Assembly: GCA_038845265.1 (NCBI GenBank)
Contig: JAWBQR010000017.1
Coordinates: 1 to 15,636, forward strand
Direction of reading: 5' to 3'
DNA length: 15,636 nucleotides
DNA from: Nitrososphaerota archaeon
GTDB taxonomy: Archaea; Thermoproteota; Nitrososphaeria_A; Caldarchaeales; Calditenuaceae
Position 1 is the first letter of the stretch. Each line of letters begins with the position of its first letter. Below, one piece after another: positions 1 through 15,100 of the stretch. The notes below the pieces were generated by a model. That model was not told the DNA's origin. It did not search any database and saw nothing but the letters and a program-made list of their open reading frames with translations. The position numbers were made by a program, and so were the translations under genes.

Positions 1-995
1 TAGGTCCGTCGGGTTGTGGAAAGACTACTACGCTTAAATGCATAGCTGGTCTTGAGAAGCCCACCTCTGGGAATATATACATTGACGATGAATTAGTAAA
101 CGAACTAGAACCATGGGAAAGAAATGTAGCTATGGTATTCCAGTTCTATGTAATGTATCCAAGACTGAAGGTATATGACCAGATAGCGTTTCCATTAAAG
201 GCGAGAAATGTATCTGATACAGAAATAAGAAGACGCGTATTAGAAGTGATAGAGAGAGTTAGGTTAAATAAAGACTTGTTGGATAAGCCAGTCTCTGCAT
301 TAAAGATCGATGAAAAGCAAAGGGTTGCAATTGCTAGGGCAATAATTCGAGAACCGAGAATATTTCTACTAGATGAGCCATTAACAAACTTAGATGCAAG
401 TCTCAGAATCCAAATAAGAGGTGAGATTAAAAAATTACTAGATGAACTGAAAGTTCCCACTGTCTACGTAACTCACGATCAATCTGAGGCAATGATTTTA
501 GCGAATAGGATTGCCGTAATGAATGAAGGGAAAATTCTACAATTTGATCTAAAAGACAAGCTATACAACAAACCTTCAGATCTTTTCGTCGCTACATTTA
601 TTGGGTCTCCACCTATGAATACTTTACAATGCTCAGTTAAGAGGGAGAATAATATGGTCTATGCAGATTCAGGAGAGATTAAGTTTAATTTGACCAATAT
701 TTTAGGAGATATAGCTAATCAGCTAGGTGAAGAAATAGTTATTGGATTTAGACCAGAACACATTGAATTTGGAAGTATTGAAGGCTTATCTAATAACTAT
801 TTGAAAATGTCATGTAAAGTATTGCTAGTTGAGAGAATAGGCGATAAGAATCTAATACATATGAGTCTAGGAGATAAATCTCTGATCGGACTTTCCAGAG
901 TTGCTACTTGTAGTGAGGGACAGAATATATATGTATTTGTAAATCATAAAAATTTACGTATATTCGATAAAAGAACAGGGAAGGCAATATTGTAA
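1..995 (+). CDS. Sugar/polyol ABC transporter ATP-binding subunit (MalK/GlpT-like), 5'-truncated by the window edge
   Basis: The frame of the 132..995 ORF is open back to base 3: GPSGCGKTTTLKCIAGLEKPTSGNIYIDDELVNELEPWERNVAMVFQF. Walker A GPSGCGKT (3-26), Q-loop VFQ, Walker B/D-loop FLLDEPLTNLD, H-loop YVTHDQ, FVATFIGSPPMN and a TOBE-type tail (GFRPEHI). The signature reads LKIDE instead of LSGGQ. Confidence 0.95.
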   Translation, partial: GPSGCGKTTTLKCIAGLEKPTSGNIYIDDELVNELEPWERNVAMVFQFYVMYPRLKVYDQIAFPLKARNVSDTEIRRRVLEVIERVRLNKDLLDKPVSALKIDEKQRVAIARAIIREPRIFLLDEPLTNLDASLRIQIRGEIKKLLDELKVPTVYVTHDQSEAMILANRIAVMNEGKILQFDLKDKLYNKPSDLFVATFIGSPPMNTLQCSVKRENNMVYADSGEIKFNLTNILGDIANQLGEEIVIGFRPEHIEFGSIEGLSNNYLKMSCKVLLVERIGDKNLIHMSLGDKSLIGLSRVATCSEGQNIYVFVNHKNLRIFDKRTGKAIL

Positions 996-1060
996 AACTA
1001 AATTGCGGAGAATTATATAGAAATTTAGTTAATAATTTGGAAATTGTTAATTTAGAAAAT

Positions 1061-1075
1061 TATCTTTATTAGATA
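1061..1075 (+). promoter_or_regulatory. Putative TATA box for a leaderless SBP transcript, embedded in a TATCT-N5-AGATA inverted repeat
   Basis: TTTATTAG at 1065-1072 lies about 25-32 nt upstream of ATG 1097. Purine run GAAAA lies just upstream and there is no SD before the ATG. Confidence 0.4.
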
Positions 1076-1096
1076 CTGTATTTATCACGTATTGCA

Positions 1097-2737
1097 ATGA
1101 AAAATACATCTAGAAGAAATTTTATAAAATATATTGGCACTGGAGTTGTCGGTCTTGGCATAGGATATGTCGGCGGTCTTTTGACACCAATGAGACCTGA
1201 AACACAATATGTAACTTATACAAAGACAGAATATACGACCATCACGAAGCCTATAACAGTAACAACGGAAGCGCCGATTACCACAATCACGACAAAAGAA
1301 GTTGATTTAAGGGAGCCATTCTTAAATTGGTCTTTAAAAGAAGCAGCAAAACCTTATAGAGGAGCTTCCATAAGGATGGTTGGAGAATTTCTGCCACCAT
1401 TAGAAGCAGTAGCTAAATTAAAAGACATCTTTGAAGACGAGACAGGAATCTCGGTCGATGTCGAAATGTACGAAGAGACAGAAGTAGTAGAGAAAGTTGC
1501 TTTTGATCTGGCATCGGGTGCTGGAATATATGACGTAGTTGCTCAACCATTTGGTAAACTTGGAAAACTTGTTGAAAACGGTTGGCTAGTCCCTCTTGAA
1601 ACCTTTCTCAAAGATCCTAAATTAACACCGCCGGGTTTTGACCCAGATAGAATTTATTTCAAAGGGCGTTTAGGAAAAGCGCCGTGGGGCAAAGATTTAA
1701 CGCAAGGAATTTATAGAGCACTGGCTGAGTACAAAGGAGTACTTTATGGATTAATTGACAAATGTCATTCAAGGAGACTTTGGTATAGAAAAGATTTGTG
1801 GTTTGATCCAAAACATAGAGAGAAGATTAGAGAGAGATACGGATTTGAATTGAAGGGCCCTGAGGATGTTTGGGATTTGACTACAGAACAATATAAGATG
1901 CTATCAGAATATTTCACGATGGGAGCTGATTTTCCATTGACAAAATATGGAACATGTATTGAAGGAAAAAGACATCCAGCTTTATATTATTCCTTCTGTG
2001 AGTGGCTTTTCCAGTTTGGTGGTGGATTTATTGACCACTCCTATCCATACGAATATGGTAAAGTAATAATTAATCAACCCGAAGCTGTTAAAGCTCTAGA
2101 ATATATGAAGAGTCTTGTACCATATTGTCCGCCTGGAACCCTCGAATACTTCTGGGATGATGCAATGGCAGCATTTCAAGGAGGATTAGTCGCTCATACC
2201 ATAATGTGGGAAGACGCTTCCTACGCTATTGTTGACCCCTCAGTCTCAAAAGTTGCAGCTGAATTAGGAGCACGCAAGGCATGTGGATTTGGACCGCTTC
2301 CTTATGTTCCCGAAAAAGGAATAAGAAGCTTTAAAACTCATGGATGGACTGATTCAATTCCATATTCGAGTAAAAATAAAGAAGCAGCCTGGCTATTTAT
2401 GTTATGGCTCTCATCATTTCCTGTAGATTTAGAGAAGCATTTCATTGGAGGAGTCTCGGGAAGACCTGATGTATGTAAATACATCGTGGAAAATATAGAT
2501 AGATTAGTGCAGGAGGGACGTACACTTCCTGGCGTCGAAGAATACACTGCGTCATACATGAAAATGTATGAAGAACATCAATATGTCCCATGTCCTACAT
2601 TTCCTGAGGCAGACATAATAATGGAAGTAATGATCGAGAATCTATCATTAGCACTTACTGGACAACTAACCGCAAAAGATGCTCTTGACCAAGCAGCAGA
2701 AACAATTGTAAGAAGGATACCAAAACTCACCCTATAA
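1097..2737 (+). CDS. ABC transporter substrate-binding protein (carbohydrate family 1, GlpV-like) with twin-arginine signal/anchor and Thr-rich linker
   Basis: N-terminal SRRNFIK followed by a hydrophobic Gly-rich helix, then the linker TQYVTYTKTEYTTITKPITVTTEAPITTITT. SBP motifs include EAAKPYRG, FEDETGISV, WYRKDLWFD..RYGFEL, SKNKEAAWLFMLWL and TAKDALDQAA. Confidence 0.92.
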   Translation: MKNTSRRNFIKYIGTGVVGLGIGYVGGLLTPMRPETQYVTYTKTEYTTITKPITVTTEAPITTITTKEVDLREPFLNWSLKEAAKPYRGASIRMVGEFLPPLEAVAKLKDIFEDETGISVDVEMYEETEVVEKVAFDLASGAGIYDVVAQPFGKLGKLVENGWLVPLETFLKDPKLTPPGFDPDRIYFKGRLGKAPWGKDLTQGIYRALAEYKGVLYGLIDKCHSRRLWYRKDLWFDPKHREKIRERYGFELKGPEDVWDLTTEQYKMLSEYFTMGADFPLTKYGTCIEGKRHPALYYSFCEWLFQFGGGFIDHSYPYEYGKVIINQPEAVKALEYMKSLVPYCPPGTLEYFWDDAMAAFQGGLVAHTIMWEDASYAIVDPSVSKVAAELGARKACGFGPLPYVPEKGIRSFKTHGWTDSIPYSSKNKEAAWLFMLWLSSFPVDLEKHFIGGVSGRPDVCKYIVENIDRLVQEGRTLPGVEEYTASYMKMYEEHQYVPCPTFPEADIIMEVMIENLSLALTGQLTAKDALDQAAETIVRRIPKLTL

Positions 2738-2740
2738 TAC

Positions 2741-2750
2741 TTATTTTTTC
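2741..2750 (+). terminator. Putative archaeal oligo-T terminator after the SBP gene
   Basis: TTATTTTTTC starts 4 nt after the TAA stop at 2737. Confidence 0.4.
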
Positions 2751-2786
2751 CATACAACTATATTTTGATAAGGGTGAGCATTTCAA

Positions 2787-3815
2787 ATGGAGAAAATAGT
2801 AACAATAATTGGAGACCCACAACTACCGTCAAAATACATATATGAAGTGATGAAAAGTCTTGAAGTTTATGGACTAAGGTTTGTATGTCATGATTGGATT
2901 ATCGACACAAGCTTAGAAGATTTTACAAATATCGTACTGGAGATAGAAAGAGGATCGATAGAGAAATTTGTTTTGCCCACCGAGGTCATAGATGACATCA
3001 TAAAATCGGAAATTTTAGTAGTGCATTATGCACCAATATCTAAAGAAGTTATTAAAAATAGTAAAAAATTAAAAATAATATGTTGCGCTAGAGGAGGAAT
3101 CGAGAATATAGATTTAGAATATGCCAAGTCTAAGCAGATCCTGATACTTAGAGCTCAGGGGAGAAATGCAAACGCTGTTGCTGATCTAACGATGGGGTTA
3201 ATAATAGCCATTAACAGACGAATCTTGGATCATCACCTATCTGTAATGAGGGGATATTGGCCAGTTCTGCCGCCTAATGAATTGCCCCATGACTTGAGTG
3301 AGTTAACATTGGGACTCATTGGGTTTGGACAAGTGGCTAGAGAAGTAGCGAAGAGAGCGAAGGCATTCGGAATGAAAATATTAGCTTACGACCCATACGT
3401 CCAGCAAAATGAATTTGACAATGCCGGTGTACTCAACGTTAATCTTGAAGATTTGCTGAAAAATTCAGATGTTGTGTCTCTACATGTAAGATTGACTAAA
3501 GAAACTCGCCATTTAATAGGTGAAAAAGAATTAAGGTTGATGAAAAATACAGCATATTTAATAAATACTGCTCGAGGAGAACTAATAGATGAAAATGCTT
3601 TAGTTAAAGCATTAAAAGAAGGATGGATAGCTGGCGCTGGACTTGATGTATTTACTGAAGAACCACTGCCGCCTAATCATCCCCTGCTTAAGCTAAACAA
3701 TGTAATACTAACACCTCATATAGCGGGATTTACGTGGGAAGGACAAGTCATAAATGGACCAAGAATCATCACTAAGCAACTCGAAGAACTCTTACAAAAG
3801 GGACATATAAAATAA
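2787..3815 (+). CDS. NAD-dependent D-isomer-specific 2-hydroxyacid dehydrogenase (RGGxEN subgroup, B. subtilis YoaD-like)
   Basis: Rossmann GLIGFGQVA and YDPY; DVVSLHVRL; catalytic Arg (NTARG), Glu (GLDVFTEEP) and His (TPHIAG); ARGGIENID and RNANAVAD. SD GGTGA at 2773-2777. Confidence 0.92.
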   Translation: MEKIVTIIGDPQLPSKYIYEVMKSLEVYGLRFVCHDWIIDTSLEDFTNIVLEIERGSIEKFVLPTEVIDDIIKSEILVVHYAPISKEVIKNSKKLKIICCARGGIENIDLEYAKSKQILILRAQGRNANAVADLTMGLIIAINRRILDHHLSVMRGYWPVLPPNELPHDLSELTLGLIGFGQVAREVAKRAKAFGMKILAYDPYVQQNEFDNAGVLNVNLEDLLKNSDVVSLHVRLTKETRHLIGEKELRLMKNTAYLINTARGELIDENALVKALKEGWIAGAGLDVFTEEPLPPNHPLLKLNNVILTPHIAGFTWEGQVINGPRIITKQLEELLQKGHIK

Positions 3816-3828
3816 CATAATAATACCA

Positions 3829-4947
3829 TCATAAGATGCCAGTATTTTTTAATAGAGATACAGCTTCTTCTTTATTGATTGGTCTCTTATGCAATATCGT
3901 ATACCTGTTAGGCCTTAGTTTGTACCCCTCAACAAGAGCATCAATTAACACGTCTAACTCTACACCGAGCCTCTCAACAGTTACAGGTGCATTAATTTTC
4001 TTAAGCATGCTTTTAATATAATACCATTGATATTTTTCATCCAACCACCAATTCTTATTATATTCCGAATGATACATACTCATTAGGATTGTTGCCAATC
4101 CGACCTGCTCACCATGCATGGCCGGGTTTCGACTACTAATATCGATATAATGGGATATCAGATGTTCTGAGCCAGAATTTGGTCTAGAAGACCCAATCAT
4201 GGCCATCGCCAAGCCAGACTTAAAGATACTCATTGAAAAAGCAGCAATATCTATACCGCCCTCATTAATGAACTTCGTCACCTCGTCATATGTCATAAGC
4301 GATAGCCTCGCTGCCGTCGGACAATAATACTCATTTTTTTCGTCCCTCGCTAATTCCCAATCCTTTAGAGACGTTGCTTTAGCAAGCATGTCTCCACAAC
4401 CCGCAGCAATCATCCGCTTAGGCTGCGACCTTAAAATTTTTAGATCGAATATTGTTGCTAACGGTGACCTACATGGATAGGTCTCTTTTTGGCCCGCTTC
4501 ATTTATTATTGAAGCCGTAGCAGACACTATTCCGTCGTGAGATAGTGTAGTCGGGACAGATATAAAGGGAATATTTCTTTTGTACGATGCCAGTTTGCAT
4601 GTATCTATCACACTACCACCCCCTACCGCTATGGAGATATCAATATTGCTCATCGACCGCGCAACTCTATTTACTTCCTCAATAGTAGGTTTAAGTATAG
4701 TGTATTCCGTGACTGGTATGTTATTTTGCCTGAGTATTTCTATTAAATGAATACCGGCAATCTTCCTTGTTATCTCATCGTCTACCACAATTGCAGATCC
4801 TGATAAGTTTAACTCTTCTATAACATCCAAGATATAGTTAACAGCATTCTCACTTAAGAGAACCTTCTTTATGTATATTTCATGTGTTTTACCACATTCA
4901 CATTGAAATCTTTCCCCTAGTCTTATTCCGAATGATTCGAGATTCAT
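3829..4947 (-). CDS. egsA: sn-glycerol-1-phosphate dehydrogenase family protein (EgsA/AraM-like)
   Basis: GGGSVIDTCK, PFISVPTTLSHDGIVS, AGCGD..KDWELA, SSRPNSGSEHLISH, HGEQVG and RPNRYTIL all match EgsA-type motifs. Start moved from TTG 4974 to ATG 4947 because SD GAGGT (4955-4959) lies 7 nt upstream of it. It may be a paralog rather than the lipid-synthesis ortholog. Confidence 0.85.
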   Translation of the reverse strand: MNLESFGIRLGERFQCECGKTHEIYIKKVLLSENAVNYILDVIEELNLSGSAIVVDDEITRKIAGIHLIEILRQNNIPVTEYTILKPTIEEVNRVARSMSNIDISIAVGGGSVIDTCKLASYKRNIPFISVPTTLSHDGIVSATASIINEAGQKETYPCRSPLATIFDLKILRSQPKRMIAAGCGDMLAKATSLKDWELARDEKNEYYCPTAARLSLMTYDEVTKFINEGGIDIAAFSMSIFKSGLAMAMIGSSRPNSGSEHLISHYIDISSRNPAMHGEQVGLATILMSMYHSEYNKNWWLDEKYQWYYIKSMLKKINAPVTVERLGVELDVLIDALVEGYKLRPNRYTILHKRPINKEEAVSLLKNTGIL

Positions 4948-4984
4948 ATTTTTTACCTCTAAAATATTTTTCAAATTCCTTCAA

Positions 4985-6568
4985 TTAAGGTTTTCCATTA
5001 GATGCGTCTTCTTTAAGTAAATTAGTATTAGTCTTTAATCTTGAGAAAATGTTTTTTAGCGAATAATAAGAATCAAGGTATATTTTGTAAATTTTGGAAT
5101 AAAGATTGTACAAATCTTCTTCAGGACTTATAACTTCTCTATATCTGACTATATCGAAGACAAGCTTATCAAGATTCTTCTCTAACCCTACCCCAACAAT
5201 CGCAAGTAGACACGCCCCATAAGGAGTTACATCCTCTATTGAGGGGGATTTAACAGTTATTCCAGTAACGTTGGCTCTTGTCTCTAACCATATTTTTCCT
5301 CTGCTACCTCCACCTGCTACAACCAAATACTTTGTCTTTAATCCAAGTTCATTTATCTTTTCAATAACGTCTCTGACAACAAAAGCCGTACCCTCTATTA
5401 TTGCTCTGATAAAGTGGCCTCGAACATGATAGGGCGTAATTCCGAGAAATGTTCCTCTGGCATCTGGATTCCATTCTGGAGTAATAGAACCTGAATAAAA
5501 TGGCAGAAACAATAAACCTCCACAGCCTGGCTCCACGAGTTCCGCCTCTCTATTCATTAACTCATAAGGATTTATTCCTATCCTATTAGATTCACTACGT
5601 AAATCTTGTCCAAAATTCTTCAAAAAATGCGAATAAATTCCGCCTGAAAGAATTCCAGTATTTTCTAGTAGCCACTTATCAGGATGGGCATGCGCATGTA
5701 ACTCTAACGTCATAGATGGATCAAATATAGGTCTATCTACAGGCGAAACTATCGGCTCTGCCGTACCAATTATGTCCAGAACACTTCCCTCTTCTAAGAC
5801 GCCTGCACCTATCGCGCCTACTTCTTCATCGCCTCCACCAGCTATTACTGGTATTCTAGGTTTCAATCCAGCCTTGACAGCCACCTCTCTACGAAGATCA
5901 CCTACAATATCGATAGATGACTTAATTTCAGGTAGTCTCGATATATCAACTCCGAATAACTCGCAGATTTCTTCAGCCCATTTTCTCTTTCTAATATTGA
6001 AAAGCATAGTAGTTGATGCATTTGTATAGTCAGTGACGACGTTGCCTGTTAAAAAATATAGGATATAATCATTTGGTGATAGAAATTTCCATGTATTATC
6101 GTAAATCTCTTTCCTATTATCCCTTAACCATAAGATCTTCGCCGCCGGATGGGAAGGATCAATAACTAGTCCAGTAATGCTATAGAAATCCTGAGCATCT
6201 ATGAGACTCTTAATTTCTTCGACTTGTTTCACTGCCCTGCGGTCTATCCATATCAATGCTTTATGCAGCGGTCTTCCCTCTTTATCAATAGGTATTAGAC
6301 CATCGATTTGGCTACTTATGCATATGCCTTCAATATTTTTTGCGATAGATTCTCCAAGATTAGAAATTAAGGATGAAGTTGATTTAAGGAAGGCATCTTC
6401 CCAGATCAGTGGATTTTGCTCTGCCCACCCCGGCATGGGATGCTCGGCTTCATAATTTGTCGAGTGCGAACCTACTATTTGGCCCTCAACATCACATATC
6501 ATGACCTTTAGCCCGCTTGTTCCTACATCAACGCCCATAACCAATGTGTTAGACGCCCTCAATAACAT
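4985..6568 (-). CDS. FGGY-family carbohydrate kinase (xylulokinase-like fold, substrate unknown)
   Basis: GVDVGTSGLK, PGWAEQNP, IWIDRRA, KILWLRDN, DYILYFLTG..TDYTNASTTMLF, VIAGGGD, LLFLPFY.G..TPEWNPDARGTFLG, RAIIEG, GGGSRG. GGTGA abuts ATG 6568, so the TTG at 6562 may be the real start. Confidence 0.93.
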   Translation of the reverse strand: MLLRASNTLVMGVDVGTSGLKVMICDVEGQIVGSHSTNYEAEHPMPGWAEQNPLIWEDAFLKSTSSLISNLGESIAKNIEGICISSQIDGLIPIDKEGRPLHKALIWIDRRAVKQVEEIKSLIDAQDFYSITGLVIDPSHPAAKILWLRDNRKEIYDNTWKFLSPNDYILYFLTGNVVTDYTNASTTMLFNIRKRKWAEEICELFGVDISRLPEIKSSIDIVGDLRREVAVKAGLKPRIPVIAGGGDEEVGAIGAGVLEEGSVLDIIGTAEPIVSPVDRPIFDPSMTLELHAHAHPDKWLLENTGILSGGIYSHFLKNFGQDLRSESNRIGINPYELMNREAELVEPGCGGLLFLPFYSGSITPEWNPDARGTFLGITPYHVRGHFIRAIIEGTAFVVRDVIEKINELGLKTKYLVVAGGGSRGKIWLETRANVTGITVKSPSIEDVTPYGACLLAIVGVGLEKNLDKLVFDIVRYREVISPEEDLYNLYSKIYKIYLDSYYSLKNIFSRLKTNTNLLKEDASNGKP

Positions 6569-6582
6569 TCACCAAATCGATG

Positions 6583-6765
6583 TTAAAACATTAATCCAAT
6601 TATAATATAATATGCCCAAAAAGTCCAGATCAATATTGCTATCGTCCAAAATGCAGTCTCACCTTTAGTGAACATCTTTCTTTTCTTGTTCCAGTTTATG
6701 AAGACGAAATCAAAAATTAATGCTATGCAAAGAACAACGACGTTGTAGAGGTGTACTAGCTCCAT
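6583..6765 (-). CDS. Small two-TM membrane protein, GlpU/DUF2160-like ABC accessory subunit candidate
   Basis: Two hydrophobic segments separated by NWNKKRKMFTKGET. Strong SD GGGGTGA (overlapping the upstream stop) 9 nt before the ATG. It lies directly after the second permease, the position of glpU in glpSTPQUV. Confidence 0.7.
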   Translation of the reverse strand: MELVHLYNVVVLCIALIFDFVFINWNKKRKMFTKGETAFWTIAILIWTFWAYYIIIGLMF

Positions 6766-6774
6766 TTTTATTTT

Positions 6775-7599
6775 TCACCCCTTCACAGCACCAAACGTTA
6801 ACCCTCTTACTATATATCTCTGTAGTAGATACGCCGTCAATAATACTGGTAATGATGTTAGGACGGCGACTGCGGCGATTTGTCCCCATAGGGTCCCATG
6901 TGGTGTTACTAGGCCTGCTATAGCAACCGGAAGCGTCTTTGCCTTATTGCCAGTCAACAATAATGCATATAGAAACTCGTTCCAAGACATCACGAACACG
7001 AACAGTGCTGTAATTGCTATTCCTGGACCACAGAGTGGGAGTATTATCTTGAATGCTGTCTCTAATGGATTGAGCTTGTCCAACCATGCAGCCTCGTCTA
7101 AATCCCTTGGTATATCGTCAATGAAGCCCTTGATTAACCACATCGCGAATGCTAAATTGAAAGCAGTATGTACTAAAATAACTACTAAATGTGTGTCCCA
7201 TAACCCAGCACTTGAGAACATCAAGAATATAGGCACAGCCACTAGTACACCGGGCCCCATTCTAGTAGTTAGAATTACGAAGAACATATGATTATCACCT
7301 CTAAGCCGCATGCGCGAAAATACGTAAGCAGCTGGAAATGCTAGGAGTACTACAAGCGCTGTTGTTCCCAAAGCTATTAGTAGGCTATTTAAAAGATAGA
7401 TGGTAAAGCCGCGTTCAGAGAATGCATAAATATAGTTATTTAGGGTCGGTTCAAAGAATATCTTTGGTACAGTGGTTAAAGCGTCTGCCCTAGTCTTAAA
7501 CGAAGTTATCATGAGCCAAAGATATGGAAATATATTAATTAGCACGAACATCACTAAAAAGACCGCAACAACATAAATCATTTTTCTTGCCATATGCAT
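6775..7599 (-). CDS. Carbohydrate ABC transporter permease (MalG/GlpQ-type)
   Basis: PYLWLMITSFKT, PTLNNY, YLLNSL, EAA loop IPRDLDEAAWLD, SWNEFLYALLLT, TLPV, QRYIVRGLTFGAVKG. The second ATG (7593) is better spaced from GAGGT. Confidence 0.95.
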   Translation of the reverse strand: MHMARKMIYVVAVFLVMFVLINIFPYLWLMITSFKTRADALTTVPKIFFEPTLNNYIYAFSERGFTIYLLNSLLIALGTTALVVLLAFPAAYVFSRMRLRGDNHMFFVILTTRMGPGVLVAVPIFLMFSSAGLWDTHLVVILVHTAFNLAFAMWLIKGFIDDIPRDLDEAAWLDKLNPLETAFKIILPLCGPGIAITALFVFVMSWNEFLYALLLTGNKAKTLPVAIAGLVTPHGTLWGQIAAVAVLTSLPVLLTAYLLQRYIVRGLTFGAVKG

Positions 7600-8481
7600 C
7601 TACCTCGCATATACATATCTAGATATGAAAAACTTCACGTATAACGCGCAAGCAATCTCAATTACAAAGAATATGAATAGACCTATCGTAGACGCATATC
7701 CTATATTCCATAGCCTGAAAGCCTCTCTGTAATTAAAGAAATGCAGGGTTTCGGAGGCATCACCCGGTCCTCCATACGTGATAATTATTATTGGGTCTAT
7801 GATCTTAAATGCATCTATCCCTCGTAACAACATTACGACCGCGAATAGGGGAAGTATTGATGGAAATATAACTTTTCTAAAATAGAAAAATCCTCTAGCA
7901 CCATCTACACTTGATGATTCTACTAGGTCTCTCGGTATTGCGTTCATTCCAGCCCAAAACAGTAGCGTTACAAATGGAAGCCATTGCCAAGTATCTACTA
8001 AAATATAGCCTAAAATGACTAAATTTGGATTAGACCATACAGATCCTTGTTGAAGTAAACCAATACTGCGAAGAATATATGTTAATACACCATACTCGCT
8101 ATGTAGTATAAAGTACCAGGTTAGCGCTATGACAGAGCTTGACATAACTATCGGGAGTATGAAGATAGTTGTAAGAACTCTAACTTTAGTAGAAGTGCCC
8201 AATAAGTATAACCCCCATGCAACGAATAAACCGATAACAATTTGAAGAGCTAATGCAGGTATCATTATTGTGGCGGTCTTTCCAATTGCAGCATATAACT
8301 TCGGATCATTAAACATGTTTCTAAAATTGTTATCCCAAACAAAACTTACCGCGCCTGGAGAAGTGTAGGATAAATTTGTAAAGCTAAGATAAATGGAGTA
8401 AATCCACGGAACTACAATAACACCAATTAAGTACAAAAAAGATGGGAGAATTAAAGCCCATCCATACGATTCTTTCCTCAA
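7600..8481 (-). CDS. Carbohydrate ABC transporter permease (MalF/GlpP-type)
   Basis: YSIYLSFT, LVDTWQWLPFVTLL, EAA-like IPRDLVESSSVDGA, DAFKIID, GGPGDASETL, IGYAS. The TTG start directly follows the upstream TAG, and its own stop abuts the next ATG (translational coupling). Confidence 0.94.
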   Translation of the reverse strand: MRKESYGWALILPSFLYLIGVIVVPWIYSIYLSFTNLSYTSPGAVSFVWDNNFRNMFNDPKLYAAIGKTATIMIPALALQIVIGLFVAWGLYLLGTSTKVRVLTTIFILPIVMSSSVIALTWYFILHSEYGVLTYILRSIGLLQQGSVWSNPNLVILGYILVDTWQWLPFVTLLFWAGMNAIPRDLVESSSVDGARGFFYFRKVIFPSILPLFAVVMLLRGIDAFKIIDPIIIITYGGPGDASETLHFFNYREAFRLWNIGYASTIGLFIFFVIEIACALYVKFFISRYVYAR

Positions 8482-9165
8482 CTACTTAGCACCCTTAATA
8501 AAGTCTAGAACTGCTATAATTTCTTCTCTGACTGTTTTTTTAGACGCCATTTTTCTCTCTAGTATTGCACCGCCTATTGTGAATGCCCAGATGTTTCTCT
8601 TTACTAGTTCTTGTATTTTTTGGAAATTGTCAATAGATCCTGCTACTATTATTGGGAGCCTTAGTTCCTTGACTACTTTTTCAAGAAGAGCCTTTTGGTC
8701 GCCAGTATATCTATAGAGTAGGAGATTTATCCCCTCTATTCCCAGTTCTTCAAATTCCTTTCCATTTTTTATAATAGCGTCTATTTCTCCTTTCAATATA
8801 CATGGATGCCCCTCAATCTCTCCTATGTATGGAAAGTATTTGATGTCTACCTTATTGTCCTTCAGATAAGCAAGAGTTTTTTTAGCGAACCAAGGCATGC
8901 CTCCTATTAAATAATCAGCGCCCACAGCGATTGCGGTCTTGACCCCAGAGAAATGTTCCTCCTCACTATAAGTTACAACCTCGAGAAAAGTAGTCATGCC
9001 ACTATTTTTCATTTTTTTAAACAGTATTTTCATTTTTTCTAATGGTAATCCGACGTCTTTACAGCCAATAAATTTTAGTCCAGTATCTTTGACTTCTTCA
9101 AAAACTTCTATTGCGTCTGGAATAGTCACATCGTGATGGGTCAACATGAATATGAATTCAGTCAT
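8482..9165 (-). CDS. Uncharacterised (beta/alpha)8-barrel protein, ribulose-phosphate-binding-barrel-like
   Basis: Alternating strand/helix pattern: FIFMLTHHD, IGCKDVG, TFLEVV, AVGADYLIGG, GINLLLYRY, PIIVAGSI, AFTIGGAI. The last two resemble the VAGGI...VGxAI phosphate-binding end of HPS/KGPDC/OMPDC barrels. SD GGTGAGG at 9173-9179. Confidence 0.7.
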   Translation of the reverse strand: MTEFIFMLTHHDVTIPDAIEVFEEVKDTGLKFIGCKDVGLPLEKMKILFKKMKNSGMTTFLEVVTYSEEEHFSGVKTAIAVGADYLIGGMPWFAKKTLAYLKDNKVDIKYFPYIGEIEGHPCILKGEIDAIIKNGKEFEELGIEGINLLLYRYTGDQKALLEKVVKELRLPIIVAGSIDNFQKIQELVKRNIWAFTIGGAILERKMASKKTVREEIIAVLDFIKGAK

Positions 9166-9358: not shown

Positions 9359-9910
9359 TTAGTTTTTAATATTTGTGAGGTGGTTGTTGATTATCATTTT
9401 TATTTTAGTGTCTTTTATCTCGTTGAGTGTTGGGGTGATTAGTTCGGCTGCGTCTCTTTTTCTGAGGGTTCCTTCGTAGGTGTATCGGGCTGCTTGGAGT
9501 ATCATCTCTGCTTTGTCTATTTGTTTTACGAGTTGGGCTTCAGGTGTGGTTTGTTGGTAGTATTCTTCGATGAGTCTTGTTAGCCATTTTTTCTCCTTTT
9601 CTGGTAGTTCTCCTATTATTTGTTTGAGTGTTGTTTCTTCGGTTCTTTCTGTTTCTTCTCTGCCTTTCATGCTCTTCATCTCTGGTGTCAGGTCTCCTGT
9701 TATTGCTTCTGCCAGGTCGTGTAGTAATGCGGTTGCGACCGCGTTGAGTGTGTCTAGTCCTTTTTCATGTGCTATGAGTAGTGTTAGTACTGCTACTCCG
9801 TATGAGTGACTTGCTACTGATTCTGGGTCTTTTACTCCTCTCTCGAGCCATCCAGTCCTCTTTGTCTCCTTTAGTCTATGGATCGCCTCAATTATTCTTT
9901 CTAGCTTCAA
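9359..9910 (-). CDS. HD-domain phosphohydrolase (YfbR/HDDC2-like 5'-deoxynucleotidase family)
   Basis: LKETKRTGW, ESVASHS, ALLHDLAEAITGD, TPEAQLVKQIDKAEMILQA. The TTG start overlaps the end of nop10 by 23 nt. Confidence 0.9.
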   Translation of the reverse strand: MKLERIIEAIHRLKETKRTGWLERGVKDPESVASHSYGVAVLTLLIAHEKGLDTLNAVATALLHDLAEAITGDLTPEMKSMKGREETERTEETTLKQIIGELPEKEKKWLTRLIEEYYQQTTPEAQLVKQIDKAEMILQAARYTYEGTLRKRDAAELITPTLNEIKDTKIKMIINNHLTNIKN

Positions 9911-10909: not shown

Positions 10910-12013
10910 TTACCACTCGTATCCATATGCCGTCATGCTTCTTCTTCTGAATCTCCCGACGATGATGGAGGCGAATGTGAGTATGATTATTACTGCTGAG
11001 GCCCCTATGACGATTGTTCTCGCCTGCGACTCCGGGAAGAGGGGTGGCTCCTGCTCGGTTATCGTGGGCTTCTGAGGAGCCCTCGTCAGCTCGACCTCCA
11101 GCGTGTAGCCCAACTCAGGAGAATTGGCCCTGAGAAGCGAGACCTTGACGTATATCTCTTGGTCTCCCTGCCTAGTAAAGTTGACCTGGGCGGTGGCGGG
11201 CACAAATCCCTCCCTCGAGGTGGAGGCATCGAGGGTGAATCCGTCAGCAGTCATTAGGCTTAGAGATAGTACTGCTGAGCCATGGTTGGGCGTTAGCTTT
11301 ACTCTCAGGCTGCTTCCCGCCTCTGGCTTGACTCTTACTGCGTAGACATCGTCTATGTCTTTTCCTCCGTAGAGCTTTACTATCTGTCCCTTCTCAGCGT
11401 AGCTAGGCGAGAGTCGTCCCTCTAGGCTTAGGCCTTCTCCAGGAGCCAGTGTAGCGATAGGGCCGGCCGCTGCTGCCTCTGCGACTGTTGGCGGCGCGTC
11501 AACGAGGCTCGTCATGTAGGTGCTCTGCTTTCCATCGCTCTTAACGGTGACTATTGGTGCGTCCCTCTCAGGTCTCAGGATTATCTTCACGGTGTAGTTT
11601 AGGACTGAGGGGGCGTATCTGTCCGCGATGCTTGTCAGGGTTATCCTGAACGTCTCATTACTAGTTGTGTACCAGCTGAATAGGTACGTCTTCGAGCTCC
11701 CCGGAGTTACTATGTCGTCCTGGGACAGGAAGTACCCACCGGTAGATAATCCTATTCCGAGAATTATCCTCGCGCTCAGATACTCTACATGACTCATCGT
11801 TATCGTCGTTTCTACTCTTACGCCTCCCGGAACCTCGAACTCGTATATCTTCGTCTCGCCGCTGTTCTCAGGTCCCGCCAGGCTTCCCCTAACTACTTTC
11901 TCCTGCTCTATTTGTAGCTCGATCCTCTCGACGCCCGCCTGCTCCGCCCTAACCACCGTTATTGATGCGGCGAATAACAGTACTATTAACGCTATTAGTG
12001 GCGCTTTTCGCAT
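10910..12013 (-). CDS. Secreted, C-terminally membrane-anchored surface protein with PPC-like beta-sandwich domain(s)
   Basis: Signal peptide MRKAPLIALIVLLFAASITVVRA from ATG 12013 (preferred over 12052). PPC-like pattern DIDDVYAV...LRVKL...LSLSL...IYVKV...YTLEV, a Pro-rich linker, TM IVIGASAVIIILTFASIIVG and the stop-transfer RFRRR. Confidence 0.75.
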   Translation of the reverse strand: MRKAPLIALIVLLFAASITVVRAEQAGVERIELQIEQEKVVRGSLAGPENSGETKIYEFEVPGGVRVETTITMSHVEYLSARIILGIGLSTGGYFLSQDDIVTPGSSKTYLFSWYTTSNETFRITLTSIADRYAPSVLNYTVKIILRPERDAPIVTVKSDGKQSTYMTSLVDAPPTVAEAAAAGPIATLAPGEGLSLEGRLSPSYAEKGQIVKLYGGKDIDDVYAVRVKPEAGSSLRVKLTPNHGSAVLSLSLMTADGFTLDASTSREGFVPATAQVNFTRQGDQEIYVKVSLLRANSPELGYTLEVELTRAPQKPTITEQEPPLFPESQARTIVIGASAVIIILTFASIIVGRFRRRSMTAYGYEW

Positions 12014-12096
12014 GGTTATAGCTAGGTATGGATAGTCAAAAATCTTTCCCATGATGGGATAATTACTAGTATTTTCGGTAGGACTTGGAGAATCTG

Positions 12097-12116
12097 AAAA
12101 AATAAGGGAAATAAAA
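12097..12116 (-). terminator. Putative oligo-T terminator of the large surface protein gene
   Basis: The minus strand reads TTTTATTTCCCTTATTTTTT about 20-40 nt after the TAA at 12136. Confidence 0.55.
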
Positions 12117-12135
12117 TTGGGTGTGGATTATGGGT

Positions 12136-15100
12136 TTACTTTGCTGCCTTCGGCGGTGCTGGCGGGTAGACGCCTAGTCGGCGTCCTCTCCACCATCTGT
12201 ACTCGCTGATGATTATCGCGATTACGAGGACTAGCAGTATTAGTCCGATTATCAGTGCTAGTAGTGTTGAGAAGGTTATGGGTACTCCGAATATCTCTGT
12301 GTATGGCGGTAGCTGTATCTCGACTACCTTGCCCTTGAGTAGGTCGTCTCTAGTCGCGGTCTTTGTGTCTGGGTATCCCTTGTATGTAGCCCTGACCGTG
12401 TAGTCTGCTAGTACTAGTCTGTCGAACTCTGCGAATCCTCCCTCGTCAGTCGATGCCGATGCCACCACGATGTCTGGAGCCTTTACTATCTCGACCGTCG
12501 CTCCTGCGAGTCCCTGTCCAGCTGCGCCTATGACTCTTACCCTAAGTGCGAATAGCTGTCCGATGACTGTTATCGATGTCCTAGCCGTCGAGAGTGTCTG
12601 TGACCTGTCTGCCTCAGGCGTCACTTCTACTCCATCCCTAGTTACTGAGAGTGTGTACGTTATTCCTGCGCCGTCCTTCTCTAGTGGTACTTTCTCGAAG
12701 ATTGCCTTTCCGTCTCCGCCGGTCGTCTTGGCCGGTGCCGCTCCTAGCTTGACTGCTGCTCCGCCTATCGGTGCTCCCTTAGCGTCGACGACTGTTACTG
12801 AGACGTCATCCACTGGTAGCTGCAGTGTCCTGCCTCCTAGTAGCCTCGTCTTCAGTCCTTCAGCTGAGTCTGTTATTGCGGCGTTGGCTGAAGTTCCGTA
12901 CACGGCGCTCTTGTACTCGACTGTTATTGTTACTGGTGCAACCTTGAGTAGTGCTGAGATGACGACGACGTTTCCTGCTACTCTTATGTCTCCTGAGTAG
13001 AACTCCTTCGGGTCAACCTTTACGTCTCCTGGAGCGACGCTGAGTGGTCTTCCCCTGAGGTCTGTTACTTCGAATGTTAGGTCTGTGAATGGCAGTGCTG
13101 CCTCTGCCTGTACCGTTCCTACGTTGACTATGCTTATGTCGAATGTCTTCTTGAATATGACTGCGCCTGTGGGCTTGAATATTACCTCAACTTCGTATAC
13201 TCCTCTTGGCAGCCTGTTGATCGTCACGGTGTCGATTGCTGGTCCGCCGACGAACTTTAGTGCTAGTTCTGTTGTTCCTCCGAGCTTCCTGTAGACCTTC
13301 ACGTCTAGCCTGCTCTTGATGTCTGCTGGCAGTGTCTTGCCCTCGTAGTTGAGCAGTAGCTTGAAGTCGAAGACCGATGTTATCGCGTCTCTGTGCTTAC
13401 CGTCATACTTGAAGATCCATTCGCTTGGCTTCCTTACCGATGTGTAGCTGTCGATTGGGACTACGAGTGTCTTTGCGGCCTCGTCTGTCTCATCTATGTC
13501 GCTGTCGTAGACCTTTACGTGGTACTTGACTACTGATACGCCAGCCTCGGTCGTTGTGAATTTCTTCTGGGGGTCGATGAATGGCCAGATTGCCAAGAGG
13601 TCTCCGTTGGCGTCGTCAGGAGTCTTGTCGGTTGCGGCCCAGTATACCCTGACTATGTACTGTAGTGCCGTTCCCTCAGCATACGTTGTCCTCGGGTCAT
13701 CTCCTCTGTATCCTGATGCGTCTACCTTGTCGTCGTTGTTTGCGTCGTAGTTCCATGCTCCGACTGCTACCGGCATGAATTCTGTGTATCCGTCGCCTCC
13801 GACTGTCCTGGCTGGTAGTAGCTTGACTCTGTGGTAGTCGTATAGCTGCTGTAGGTCGATTGGCTGCCTAGTCCATGTTGAGCCGAATGTGTAGCTCCAG
13901 CCCGCGGTTCTGCCGCTTGCTCTCTCGACTATCTCGACGAATGCTCCGCGGAGTGGCCTGCCGTTGAAGTCTAGTGCCCTGACCGTTACTATTGTGTAGT
14001 CGACGTTGATTATGTATGGCTTGCTCCTAGTCCTGCCCTCCTCTGGGAAGTATGCGACACAGAGGCCGTAGCAGTAGCTACCTTCATCGAACCATGTTGC
14101 TATCTCGCTGATCGCGTAGTGTGTCGGTACTTCGTCTGGGAAGTATGCGCCTACGCTTACTCTCTGGTCAGGCGAGTAGCCTGCATATTCTACGTAGCTG
14201 ACTCCTCTGGCGTCTAGTAGGCTCTTCCATTTGGCGTCGTTGACGTTTAGTAGCCATGATGGTGGCTCTACTCTGTATCTGACGGTCATTCCTGCCCATA
14301 GGACTTTGGTTGGGTCTGCTGGGTTGCTTGCTACTGTTACTAGTCCGTCTGCGCCTGAGACTGCTGAGCCTGAGGCTGCTGTTATTCCTGCTGCCTTGTT
14401 GCGTATCTCGTATTTGACGGTGAAGCCCTCGAGTGGGTAGGCAGTCGGTATGCCCTGCTCATCTCTCCACCCAAGGACTAGGAACTGTAGCTGGTGGGCT
14501 GCGTTGAGCATTATTGGTACGTCTATCTTGCTTCTAGTTACTGTCTTGAGTGCTCCGTCTCCGAATGTCTCGTTGTTCAGTACGAATTGTGTTGCTACTA
14601 GGTCGTCCATCCAGTCGATTGCGGTGTGGTTTGCGCTGAAGACGTATTTCCATGTGGTGTTCATGAATCTTGGTCCAGGTATCTTGCTTAGGCTTACGAG
14701 TCCGTCAGCGTCTGCGCTGCTGATTAGGGTGACTCTATACTTGCATTCGAAGGCGCTTTCATCGCATGCCTCGTAGTCCTGCGGCGGGTATGGCGTATCA
14801 TACCATAGCCCGTCCTCCCACCATGTTGTTACGTTGGGGTAGTATATCCATAGGTTGAGGTTCTTGACTGCGTCTGCTGGGCTTGTTGAGTTGCTGAGTG
14901 TGAACATGAAGGTTACGTCGTAGACCTCTGAGGCTCCGAACTCTACGTATTTCTTGTCAAGTACTAGGTTGTCGCTGTAGACTACTGCGCTCTTCCATAC
15001 GACGTTGAAGAGGTAGTGGAACTCCTCCTCTAGGTCCTCCTCGCCTGTCGCTCCCTCTACGCTGAATGTCTCGTTTAGCCATCCGCTGGTCGGGACTAGT

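Follow-up and report, generated by a model that had tools for sequence, protein, structure and literature searches.

What does a hot-spring archaeon do with a locus that sets an importer, a kinase, an sn-glycerol-1-phosphate dehydrogenase (G1PDH) and a TIM barrel of no named family side by side? The question is raised by the first 15,636 bases (the window) of contig C17 (JAWBQR010000017.1) of a Nitrososphaerota archaeon from the family Calditenuaceae (GCA_038845265.1, here G000), whose genome of 1.37 Mb in 34 contigs has an estimated completeness of 93% and a contamination of 1.9%; the same stretch is also present in runs labelled hot springs metagenome. A first-pass annotation had described nine genes at positions 1–9165 as an uptake-plus-catabolism set that matched no described pathway. 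The listing of open reading frames (ORFs) and the family scans bear out these nine genes, with their coordinates and domains, and the interpretation is partly supported.

Our preferred answer, to which we give a little less than an even chance, is that the window carries an acquired uptake and catabolism locus in which a kinase, a dehydrogenase, and the barrel would act in this order to yield a triose phosphate. The main evidence is comparative: Bacillota, Actinomycetota, Pseudomonadota, and Bathyarchaeia share a recurrent trio of kinase (FGGY or DUF1537), dehydrogenase (G1PDH-like or PdxA), and barrel.

The barrel family and its genome context

The barrel gene (8482–9165, minus strand) encodes an uncharacterised protein of 227 amino acids (aa) without a Pfam family at E ≤ 0.001. 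It had at first been taken for an orphan, which does not hold: 687 homologues are found at E ≤ 1e-3 among 1010 candidates scored in a 90%-identity collection, and a profile search retrieves 1236 representatives of 50%-identity clusters, 763 of them at E ≤ 1e-10 and 212 at E ≤ 1e-30. The homologues are named "hypothetical protein" or carry assorted wrong guesses, and no model in the 2025–2026 Pfam and NCBIfam libraries corresponds to the barrel.

Genome context was assessed at 78 barrel loci obtained by a pattern scan, with one genome per species and named genomes. Neighbours were counted by tblastn with the window proteins and representatives of recurrent neighbour clusters; since 5 kb of flank on both sides is available in 42 of the 78 loci, all counts are lower bounds. 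Seven loci are archaeal (Bathyarchaeia, Desulfurococcaceae), with barrels 53–65% identical to that of the window. The bacterial barrels are approximately 36–44% identical and come mostly from Oscillospiraceae, Lachnospiraceae, and other Bacillota; others belong to Selenomonadaceae, Acidaminococcaceae, Bacteroidales, Flexilinea, Planctomycetota, Actinomycetota, and a Paracoccus. Within 5 kb of the barrel, an FGGY kinase is seen in 46 loci, a G1PDH-like gene in 38 (in all of them on the barrel strand), and a flavin-reductase-domain protein in 37, followed by a DeoR regulator (20), a cupin (19), an APC amino-acid permease (18), TRAP DctP (17), and a Liv-type binding protein (10). A 2-hydroxyacid dehydrogenase (2-HADH) is found within 5 kb in a single locus and within 10 kb in two; CUT1 permeases like those of the window are found in none and in one, respectively. 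The co-occurrence elsewhere that the first-pass annotation had proposed to look for is thus seen, across domains, for the kinase, the G1PDH-family dehydrogenase, and the barrel, and not for the CUT1 permeases or the 2-HADH.

Within 10 kb of the barrel, an FGGY or a G1PDH-like gene is present in 66 of the 78 loci, and both are present in 21. G1PDH-like genes (40 loci) and cupins (21 loci, from seven cupin queries) never occur together, and 20 of the 21 cupin loci have an FGGY kinase. In the barrel tree (95 rows, 85 of them different), the window falls into an archaeal clade of eight rows (support 97) that mixes cupin-type and G1PDH-type loci, and the partner label needs at least 6–8 changes. 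This mixture of partner types suggests that the barrel is the constant element of the module, providing a constant step whose partner has been swapped repeatedly.

Several locus types have further members. Bacterial loci (L019, L035, and many others) often contain two distant G1PDH-like paralogues, of 415 aa and 480–500 aa, together with the flavin-reductase-domain protein. TRAP-type loci carry two more conserved proteins, of 377 aa and 158 aa; neither has a Pfam or NCBIfam family, and the longer one also has no match in PDB. In L008, L011, and L018, from Lachnospiraceae and relatives, several other genes accompany the barrel, FGGY kinase, and cupin: an isolated catalytic domain of an E2 acyltransferase, a flavoprotein similar to E3, a B12-binding-domain protein of 589 aa, an MFS carrier, and a protein resembling sulfoquinovose isomerase, the last at 106 bits, far under the cut-off. 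In L009, L013–L017, and L022, from Acidaminococcaceae and Bacteroidales, the barrel stands beside a HAD hydrolase and a VanW-like protein; here, neither the kinase nor the G1PDH-like gene was found in the sequence covered.

The Pseudomonadota, where the barrel is present in 8 of 401 genomes, add other combinations. PdxA lies directly upstream of the barrel or is fused to it in three of seven further loci; these three represent two lineages (L142 and L143 are 86–94% alike). In L142 and L143, a DUF1537-type kinase (SBD_N and NBD_C) directly precedes PdxA, and the barrel is followed by a D-serine-dehydratase-like protein, a beta-eliminating lyase, and a DAO-type oxidase; of the other loci, one combines the barrel with a cupin and one with methylglyoxal synthase (MGS). 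The barrel is also fused to PdxA in P0314 (TIGR00557, 377 bits, above the cut-off), to MGS in P0290 (145 bits, above the cut-off), to a cupin in P0296 (Cupin_2, E 1.1e-09, 38.3 bits), and to a serine/threonine dehydratase in P0273 (426 bits, above the cut-off). None of the first 78 loci gave a tblastn match to the fused PdxA, PALP, MGS, and cupin domains. MGS uses dihydroxyacetone phosphate (DHAP), and its fusion to the barrel points to a triose phosphate next to the barrel. Neither a DUF1537 kinase nor a PdxA-family dehydrogenase is found in the window or in G000 (tblastn with the L142 proteins); the window is therefore not a member of the DUF1537–PdxA2 pathway and can at most work like it.

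The module looks acquired in this archaeon, because the barrel is found in none of 30 relatives (2 of the same genus and 16 of the same family; 20 of the 30 at least 90% complete), while the best matches there are 37% identical for the kinase and 32% for the solute-binding protein. The closest relatives of the window's barrel and kinase are from Desulfurococcaceae and Bathyarchaeia. The left border of the module is lost at the contig end, and the right one lies between the barrel and approximately 10 kb.

As for the barrel itself, its likeness to Pfam families is faint and limited to the C-terminal third, where NanE (17.6 of 27 bits) and His_biosynth (17.5 of 23.6) stay below the gathering threshold. 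The best match of the barrel profile in PDB has an E of 5.6e-4 over positions 139–203 and covers a motif of NanE and HisA/PriA; a phosphate-binding motif of strands 7 and 8 is common to the barrel, NanE, HisA, and IGPS. The AlphaFold model built from a 50-sequence alignment is an eight-fold beta/alpha barrel with pLDDT 96.8 and pTM 0.92 (the single-sequence fold had pLDDT 55.5). Its structural matches are headed by hexulose-6-phosphate synthase (HPS; Z 20.3, 20% identity), the pyruvate kinase barrel (19.4), PdxJ (19.1), OMP decarboxylase (OMPDC; 18.6), KDPG aldolase (18.4), and 3-keto-L-gulonate-6-phosphate decarboxylase (KGPDC; 1kv8, 18.0); other phosphate-binding barrels follow, with ribulose-phosphate epimerases at approximately 17. 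HPS, OMPDC, and KGPDC form an enolate-forming group, and unrelated barrels in the list (pyruvate kinase, PdxJ, KDPG aldolase) reach similar scores. Foldseek against PDB gives generic TIM-barrel matches (TM 0.61–0.69) with PriA/HisA in the top rows, and the automatic name in the ESM Atlas is "HisA/HisF-related TIM barrel". Invariant in 50 archaeal and bacterial sequences are D12, T14, K36, E62, R152, and the glycine-rich ends of strands 7 and 8. The barrel is predicted to bind a phosphorylated substrate.

Some of these features would also fit an Amadori-type barrel, i.e., a HisA/TrpF-like isomerase that acts on an amino-ketone phosphate, e.g., 3-amino-2-oxopropyl phosphate derived from 4-hydroxythreonine by the kinase and the dehydrogenase, and leads, in place of a decarboxylation, to ammonia and glyceraldehyde-3-phosphate. 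The Foldseek rows and the ESM Atlas name agree with it, as do the best PDB profile matches, NanE and HisA/PriA, which concern the C-terminal motif only (E 6e-4 to 0.07). An invariant Asp follows strand 1, as in HisA/PriA, where this residue has a role; however, the second catalytic Asp, on strand 5, is not conserved in the barrel. Genes related to amino acids are seen around the barrel in the Pseudomonadota (the D-serine-dehydratase-like protein, beta-eliminating lyase, and DAO-type oxidase next to PdxA and the DUF1537 kinase), in the serine/threonine dehydratase fusion, in the 18 loci with APC permeases and the 10 with Liv-type binding proteins, and in the Bathyarchaeia locus L005, which also has APC permeases; the window, in contrast, has a sugar-type CUT1 importer and no amino-acid enzyme, and the 17 loci with DctP suggest carboxylates, for which no amine is needed. 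We consider an Amadori-type reaction decidedly unlikely.

The kinase and the dehydrogenase

The FGGY kinase (4985–6568, minus strand) is matched along its whole length by FGGY_N (238.7 bits) and FGGY_C (108 bits). Its best NCBIfam model is XylB (TIGR01312, 370.6 bits with a cut-off of 380.25), followed by GntK (264), GlpK (237, cut-off 590), and LsrK (218); it is about equally distant from solved xylulo-, glycerol, gluconate, and AI-2 kinases (206–177 bits), the best being a xylulose kinase at 206 bits. Such scores could be expected of an ordinary xylose/xylulose locus, or another described pentose locus, in which the kinase is XylB and feeds the pentose-phosphate pathway. However, the E. coli-type xylulokinase model gives 215 bits with a cut-off of 912, xylose isomerase is not seen in the window, and the kinase sits in a clade defined by barrel and G1PDH-like neighbours. 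Moreover, an ordinary pentose-phosphate exit is unlikely because ribulose-phosphate 3-epimerase (Ribul_P_3_epim) and the transketolase N-terminal domain (Transketolase_N) are not found in the 93%-complete genome, and triose-phosphate isomerase is present. We give hardly any credence to a pentose locus, and the case of ordinary xylulose proteins, named in the first-pass annotation as a refutation, is not borne out.

The FGGY tree has 55 rows, with two partial rows and two duplicates of the window removed. Here, the barrel-side kinases form two clades, a cupin-type one (22 rows, SH-aLRT 99) and a G1PDH-type one (20 rows, SH-aLRT 96). The latter consists of the window kinase and the 19 kinases contributed to the tree by loci in which the barrel has a G1PDH-like neighbour, and the window kinase is sister to the Bathyarchaeia loci L005 and L006 (support 98). 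Kinases of the window's own relatives fall outside both clades.

The G1PDH of the EgsA type (3829–4974) is the last gene of the minus-strand unit and scores 306 bits with NF002022 and 107.9 bits with Fe-ADH_2. It aligns to the solved G1P dehydrogenases 4rfl/4rgq over residues 39–381 (E 1e-50), with the conserved stretches GGG..ID..K, PTT.S.DG, AG.GD, SGSEHL.SH, and HGEQ.G. The NF002022 equivalog cut-off (413 bits) is missed not only here but in 29 of the 30 G1PDH-bearing genomes of the order, G000 included (245–408 bits), which indicates that it is too strict for this lineage. No other G1PDH-family gene above 45 bits is found in G000. A family match is seen in 29 of the 30 relatives, in most of them as a single copy; copies from the window's family score 245–313 bits, with one at 362. 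The same-genus orthologue is 66% identical and sister to the window gene (support 99), and the closest named homologues are from metagenome-assembled genomes labelled Nitrososphaerota (87 and 45% identity), Aigarchaeota, and Caldarchaeales.

The G1PDH-family tree, which has 85 rows following the removal of two, separates a canonical archaeal clade (support 99) from a second clade (81) that comprises the window, most of its family, and the barrel-linked Bathyarchaeia genes. One Bathyarchaeia genome also has a canonical EgsA (484 bits) elsewhere, hence its barrel-linked gene is a paralogue. The bacterial barrel-linked G1PDH-like proteins form two distant clades, whose nearest solved structures are G1P dehydrogenases. 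By these comparisons, the window gene appears to be the native EgsA of the lineage and not a dedicated catabolic paralogue. With archaeal EgsA it shares its standing as the sole candidate in its genome, the end-to-end alignment with solved G1PDHs, and orthology to the single copy of the relatives; it differs from it in the score under the NCBI equivalog cut-off, in belonging to a second archaeal clade together with barrel-linked Bathyarchaeia paralogues, and in its terminal position in a transporter–kinase operon.

Some further observations concern this gene family. Genomes of one and the same archaeal order have their single G1PDH gene from the canonical clade in some cases and from the second clade (245–345 bits with the NCBI EgsA model) in others. 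Genes of the window's family are named "iron-containing alcohol dehydrogenase" by NCBI, and one of 31 genomes passes the NF002022 cut-off; automatic annotation would list these archaea as lacking EgsA. The same-genus genome G002 has a second, partial G1PDH at a contig edge (C28:3-467), 58% identical to the first 160 residues of the window protein, with no kinase in the 2 kb beside it.

If the dehydrogenase is the native EgsA, it could be a bystander: the acquired genes would have landed around a housekeeping egsA, and the kinase and the barrel, the latter as an aldolase or epimerase of a sugar phosphate, would act on a ketose or polyol. The gene is the only one of its kind in G000 and mostly single in the relatives, and its same-genus orthologue has a housekeeping context. 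Loci with the barrel, FGGY kinase, and cupin, among them the closest barrel relatives in Desulfurococcaceae and Bathyarchaeia, work without a G1PDH-like gene, and the structural list contains KDPG aldolase and ribulose-phosphate epimerases, in addition to the NanE-like motifs. Yet all 19 other members of the window's kinase clade are from G1PDH-like loci, the barrel-linked Bathyarchaeia paralogues group with the window's G1PDH clade (support 86–92), and the G1PDH starts 10 nt after the kinase stop on the same strand. Adjacency to the single G1PDH would arise by chance about 1 in 700 times, assuming approximately 1400 genes (a rough estimate from 1.37 Mb). We regard the bystander scenario as unlikely, and participation of the G1PDH in the module, as opposed to accidental neighbourhood, as fairly probable; in this case the enzyme would have a double role, in lipid backbone synthesis and in catabolism.

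The identity of the dehydrogenase also underlies a mirror-image glycerol route, one of the two models of the first-pass annotation, in which the kinase makes sn-glycerol-1-phosphate from glycerol or a lipid-derived compound and the G1PDH converts it to DHAP, as a salvage of archaeal lipid backbones or head groups. In its favour, the enzyme is a genuine G1PDH-family protein with the stretches of solved G1PDHs. Many carriers of the barrel are rumen or gut bacteria according to the record titles, and these habitats also hold methanogens. In comparisons with solved structures, the bacterial barrel-linked proteins resemble G1P dehydrogenases more than glycerol dehydrogenases, and AraM of Bacillus subtilis is a G1PDH, according to PMC10221552. 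However, the model leaves the barrel, the cupin alternative, and the flavin-reductase partner without a role; PdxA and a DUF1537 kinase, with C4 acids as their known substrates, replace the G1PDH-like and FGGY genes in Pseudomonadota; the kinase stays far from the GlpK cut-off (237 vs 590 bits); and importers of the TRAP, APC, and Liv types would be unexpected for glycerol. We find this route very unlikely.

A possible catabolic route and its described counterparts

In the kinase–dehydrogenase–barrel route that we prefer, the CUT1 importer would take up a small compound with a terminal diol, candidate substrates being a four-carbon acid sugar (D-erythronate, D-threonate), a related tetritol, or the 2-amino analogue 4-hydroxythreonine. 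The FGGY kinase would phosphorylate the terminal hydroxyl, and the G1PDH would oxidise the adjoining CHOH to a ketone, by the same chemistry as on glycerol-1-phosphate and as that of PdxA/PdxA2 on 4-phospho-C4 acids. The barrel would convert the resulting keto-phosphate to a triose phosphate, most likely by decarboxylation of a 3-oxo-4-phospho acid to DHAP, while the 2-HADH may have an accessory function, at the entry or in a side step. In this archaeon, the dehydrogenation would fall to the cell's only EgsA, also the maker of the lipid backbone. Where a cupin is the partner, it could act as an isomerase that forms this 3-oxo intermediate from a 2-oxo compound, in some loci with a 2-HADH, in parallel to LtnD and OtnI. 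sn-Glycerol-1-phosphate, which is D-glycerol-3-phosphate, is configured like the penultimate carbon of D-sugar omega-phosphates; D-tetronate 4-phosphates would therefore be fitting substrates for a G1PDH-type enzyme. The other model of the first-pass annotation, with a kinase, an NAD-linked oxidation, and a barrel step to a triose, comes close to this comparative picture.

Such a route is known in kind; what would be new is its construction from different families around an uncharacterised barrel. Zhang et al., in PNAS in 2016, reportedly described catabolism of D-threonate and D-erythronate to DHAP by a DUF1537 kinase (DtnK/DenK) and PdxA2. According to PMC9997740 and PMC12994016, C4 acid sugars are turned into DHAP by DUF1537 kinases that work together with PdxA2 or with Otn enzymes; the kinases supply the 4-phospho-C4 acids, and PdxA/PdxA2 oxidise the carbon next to the phosphorylated end. 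Common to the DtnK/DenK–PdxA2 route and the one proposed here are terminal phosphorylation, NAD(P)+-dependent oxidation of the adjoining carbon, loss of CO2, and a triose phosphate product; besides, the Pseudomonadota barrel stands directly beside these two families. In contrast, the window has an FGGY kinase and a G1PDH-type dehydrogenase, neither of them from the described families, and its extra barrel, not needed in the described route, is the most conserved element.

The four-step route from L-threonate and D-erythronate (LtnD/DenD, OtnK, OtnI, OtnC), with an Ltn3D bypass, is described in PMC12994016. It resembles the proposed scheme in combining a 2-dehydrogenase, a 2-oxo/3-oxo isomerase, and a decarboxylase of a 3-oxo-acid phosphate that gives DHAP, so that by analogy the window 2-HADH, the cupin of the alternative loci, and the barrel could correspond to LtnD, OtnI, and OtnC. 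All the protein families differ, though: OtnC has a class II aldolase fold, OtnI is a xylose-isomerase-like barrel, and OtnK is a DUF1537 kinase. A further counterpart is the yiaK-S/ula route of E. coli, with LyxK, an FGGY kinase of L-xylulose/3-keto-L-gulonate, and SgbH/UlaD, the KGPDC. Here, too, an FGGY kinase is followed by a phosphate-binding barrel of approximately 220 aa that decarboxylates a 3-keto acid phosphate, with KGPDC among the structural matches given above; however, the window barrel is outside the OMPdecase family, the downstream epimerases SgbU and SgbE are absent, and the window substrate is probably shorter.

The arabinose operon of B. subtilis encodes AraM next to an FGGY kinase, AraB, and a CUT1 importer, AraNPQ. 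As in the window, a G1PDH-family gene thus resides in an operon for sugar uptake and phosphorylation. No barrel of this family is known there, B. subtilis having lain outside the barrel searches, and AraM is reported to supply G1P for ether lipids; to our knowledge, the logic of a G1PDH in that operon has never been explained. Our literature search found no published description of a kinase–dehydrogenase–barrel module, the supplementary neighbourhood tables of papers on C4 acid sugars, which might list the barrel, lying outside that search.

A number of points weigh against the route proposed here. Twelve of the 78 loci have neither an FGGY nor a G1PDH-like gene in the sequence covered. The transporters vary by locus (TRAP, APC permease, Liv-type ABC, MFS, CUT1 ABC), and the substrates may differ between locus variants. 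The Z-scores of the structural matches are flat, falling from 20.3 to 15.6 over 50 TIM-barrel families; the list therefore fixes the fold class and a phosphate-bearing substrate, not the reaction. PF00215, the model of the OMPDC suprafamily, has no match in the barrel at E ≤ 1, and strand 3 of the barrel reads TTFLE62VV instead of the suprafamily signature Asp-x-Lys-x-x-Asp at the end of this strand. The same-genus G1PDH orthologue adjoins TruD, PurB (adenylosuccinate lyase), PurA, and IMPDH, with no kinase within the available 300 nt, and kinase and G1PDH could have become adjacent here by an accidental insertion. Bacterial G1PDH-like proteins linked to the barrel are 25–33% identical to that of the window and score 124–146 bits with NF002022, compared with 306. 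In run X11, a contig with the kinase 3' end diverges from the window at 4960, and the G1PDH piece is 7% divergent, with flanks at approximately 1%; the egsA allele may have been replaced in that strain, or the kinase may have another neighbour there. The order of reactions and the barrel chemistry are read from gene context. Finally, PdxA2 alone reportedly both oxidises and decarboxylates 4-phospho-D-threonate, hence a separate decarboxylase is not obviously needed.

Two observations complete the comparison with known families. An hhalign comparison of the barrel profile with the genome's own OMPdecase-family protein gives a probability of 0.5%; this protein, the only one of its family in G000, lies in a 443-aa ORF and is possibly a fusion of the HPS-PHI type. 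A role of the locus in PLP biosynthesis, with members similar to PdxB, PdxA, and PdxJ, was also weighed and rejected, since PdxS is present in the genome and transporters and regulators are part of the loci.

A more specific version of the route, which is possible and still doubtful when its parts are taken jointly, makes the barrel a new enzyme family, either a decarboxylase of 3-oxo-4-phospho acids or an isomerase of amino-ketone phosphates. It would catalyse the last step of a third, non-orthologous route from C4 acid sugars, tetritols, or 4-hydroxythreonine to triose phosphate, widespread in gut and rumen Clostridia and in Bathyarchaeia, and would here have been acquired sideways, recruiting the sole G1P dehydrogenase.

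Gene layout, importer, and wider meaning

From the barrel to the G1PDH, the minus-strand genes are packed tightly. The barrel is followed by an ABC permease similar to GlcT/UgpA (7600–8481; BPD_transp_1 35.3 bits; GlcT 69.5 and UgpA 65.2, both under the cut-off), a second permease similar to MalG/GlcU (6775–7599; BPD_transp_1 56.6 bits; GlcU 117.6 and MalG 110.5, both under the cut-off), and a possible small hydrophobic protein of 60 aa (6583–6765), a putative ORF called from the ORF listing with two membrane spans predicted by eye; then come the kinase and the G1PDH. The successive gaps are 0, 0, 9, 14, and 10 nt, the last three including those of 9 and 14 nt into which the small ORF splits the 206-nt interval between permease and kinase; no homologue of this ORF is found in the fetched loci or elsewhere in G000. 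Judging by strand and spacing, these six look like one transcription unit, converging on a plus-strand unit. The nine ORFs of the first-pass annotation are long and have strong family matches, and are therefore not chance ORFs.

An HD-domain phosphohydrolase similar to YfbR (9359–9910, minus strand; HD_3 121.6 bits) begins the low-G+C block's minus-strand genes, with 193 nt between it and the downstream barrel; its membership in the minus-strand unit is uncertain. Homologues that are 40–45% identical are present in the relatives, and none is found in the two same-genus genomes at E ≤ 1e-15.

The plus-strand unit contains an ATPase of the MalK/UgpC/GlcV (CUT1) type (3–995; ABC_tran 92.7 bits, OB_MalK 38.9 bits), truncated at the 5' end by the contig start, a CUT1 sugar/polyol-type solute-binding protein of 546 aa (1097–2737; SBP_bac_1, SBP_bac_8), and the 2-HADH (2787–3815). 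The importer had been described as Glp-type, which the models do not sustain: the ATPase is under the cut-off in each of its best NCBIfam models (UgpC 324/432, MalK 267/568, GlcV 257/450), the Ugp permease models are also below it (UgpE 61/297, UgpA 65/335), and no NCBIfam model, including any of Ugp/Glp, matches the binding protein. The best solved relatives of the latter are weak and partial: the sugar ABC transporter protein 5iai (70.9 bits), MalE3, a trehalose/maltose-binding protein, and a sorbitol-binding protein. The domain set, with SBP_bac_1, two BPD_transp_1 permeases, and a MalK-type ATPase with a C-terminal OB domain, is complete for what we take to be the CUT1 class, and the importer is best described as a generic sugar importer of this type.

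A paralogous ATPase (50% identical) and binding protein (61%) open contig C6 (G000:C6:3-2665, binding protein at 1085-2665), which begins at the same ATPase codon as C17; the ATPase gene therefore probably has a repeated part in which the two contigs end. On C6, this pair is followed by the housekeeping genes MntP, primase, SerRS, and SHMT.

The 2-HADH is D-isomer-specific (2-Hacid_dh catalytic domain 59.5 bits, 2-Hacid_dh_C 223.6 bits) and remains under the cut-off in all NCBIfam models (glyoxylate reductase 251, PGDH 248, PdxB 140). Its best match among the 30 relatives is 50% identical, with no close orthologue. Given its rarity around the barrel, it would be accessory here and not a conserved barrel partner.

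Contigs from other assemblies were compared at the gene junctions. The FGGY/G1PDH/2-HADH junctions are spanned at 99–100% identity by the metagenome contig L154, possibly not independent of the source sample, and by one contig of run X6, a possible source of the window DNA. Contigs of run X11 span the junctions between permease and barrel and between barrel and HD gene, and the G+C jump near 10 kb. G+C content is 0.35–0.40 up to approximately 10 kb and 0.50–0.55 beyond; assembly chimerism at this jump was considered and rejected, as X11 and X6 contigs cross it. In X11, which represents a related population, the G1PDH piece (window 3895–4960) differs at 71 of 989 positions, compared with 22 of 2238 in the kinase–permease piece.

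In the high-G+C part (10910–15636) are the genes of a 380-aa protein that has no family and of a surface protein, longer than 1166 aa, that contains CarboxypepD_reg/Big_1 domains. In contigs from an RNA library (run X18), word depth is 37–216 on this part and 0–12 on the sugar locus, contig depth being no measure of expression. These contigs cover the G1PDH and HD genes in part and the genes past 11 kb strongly, and leave the kinase uncovered; they can show neither a transcript nor its absence. No tRNA or Rfam family is found in the window. A scan for bacterial-type promoters and terminators, which is not applicable to archaea, gives no excess over shuffles (33 vs 32.9 and 6 vs 6.2, respectively).

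The barrel family, which ranges from Bacillota of the rumen and gut to archaea of hot springs, comprises no fewer than 1236 clusters at 50% identity and has neither a Pfam or NCBIfam model nor an assigned function. Its genome-context signature is unusually clean, with a fixed barrel, interchangeable kinases (FGGY/DUF1537), and interchangeable partners (G1PDH-like/PdxA/cupin); therefore, the chemistry proposed here is specific and directly testable with a few purified proteins and commercial C4 compounds. The whole archaeal family of the window genome carries a G1PDH that the NCBI model misses. If the proposed route is true, many bacterial genes similar to glycerol-1-phosphate dehydrogenases would have a catabolic role, the presence of a G1PDH in the arabinose operon of B. 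subtilis may become easier to understand, and in this archaeon an enzyme of archaeal lipid synthesis would do double duty, in membrane synthesis and in catabolism.

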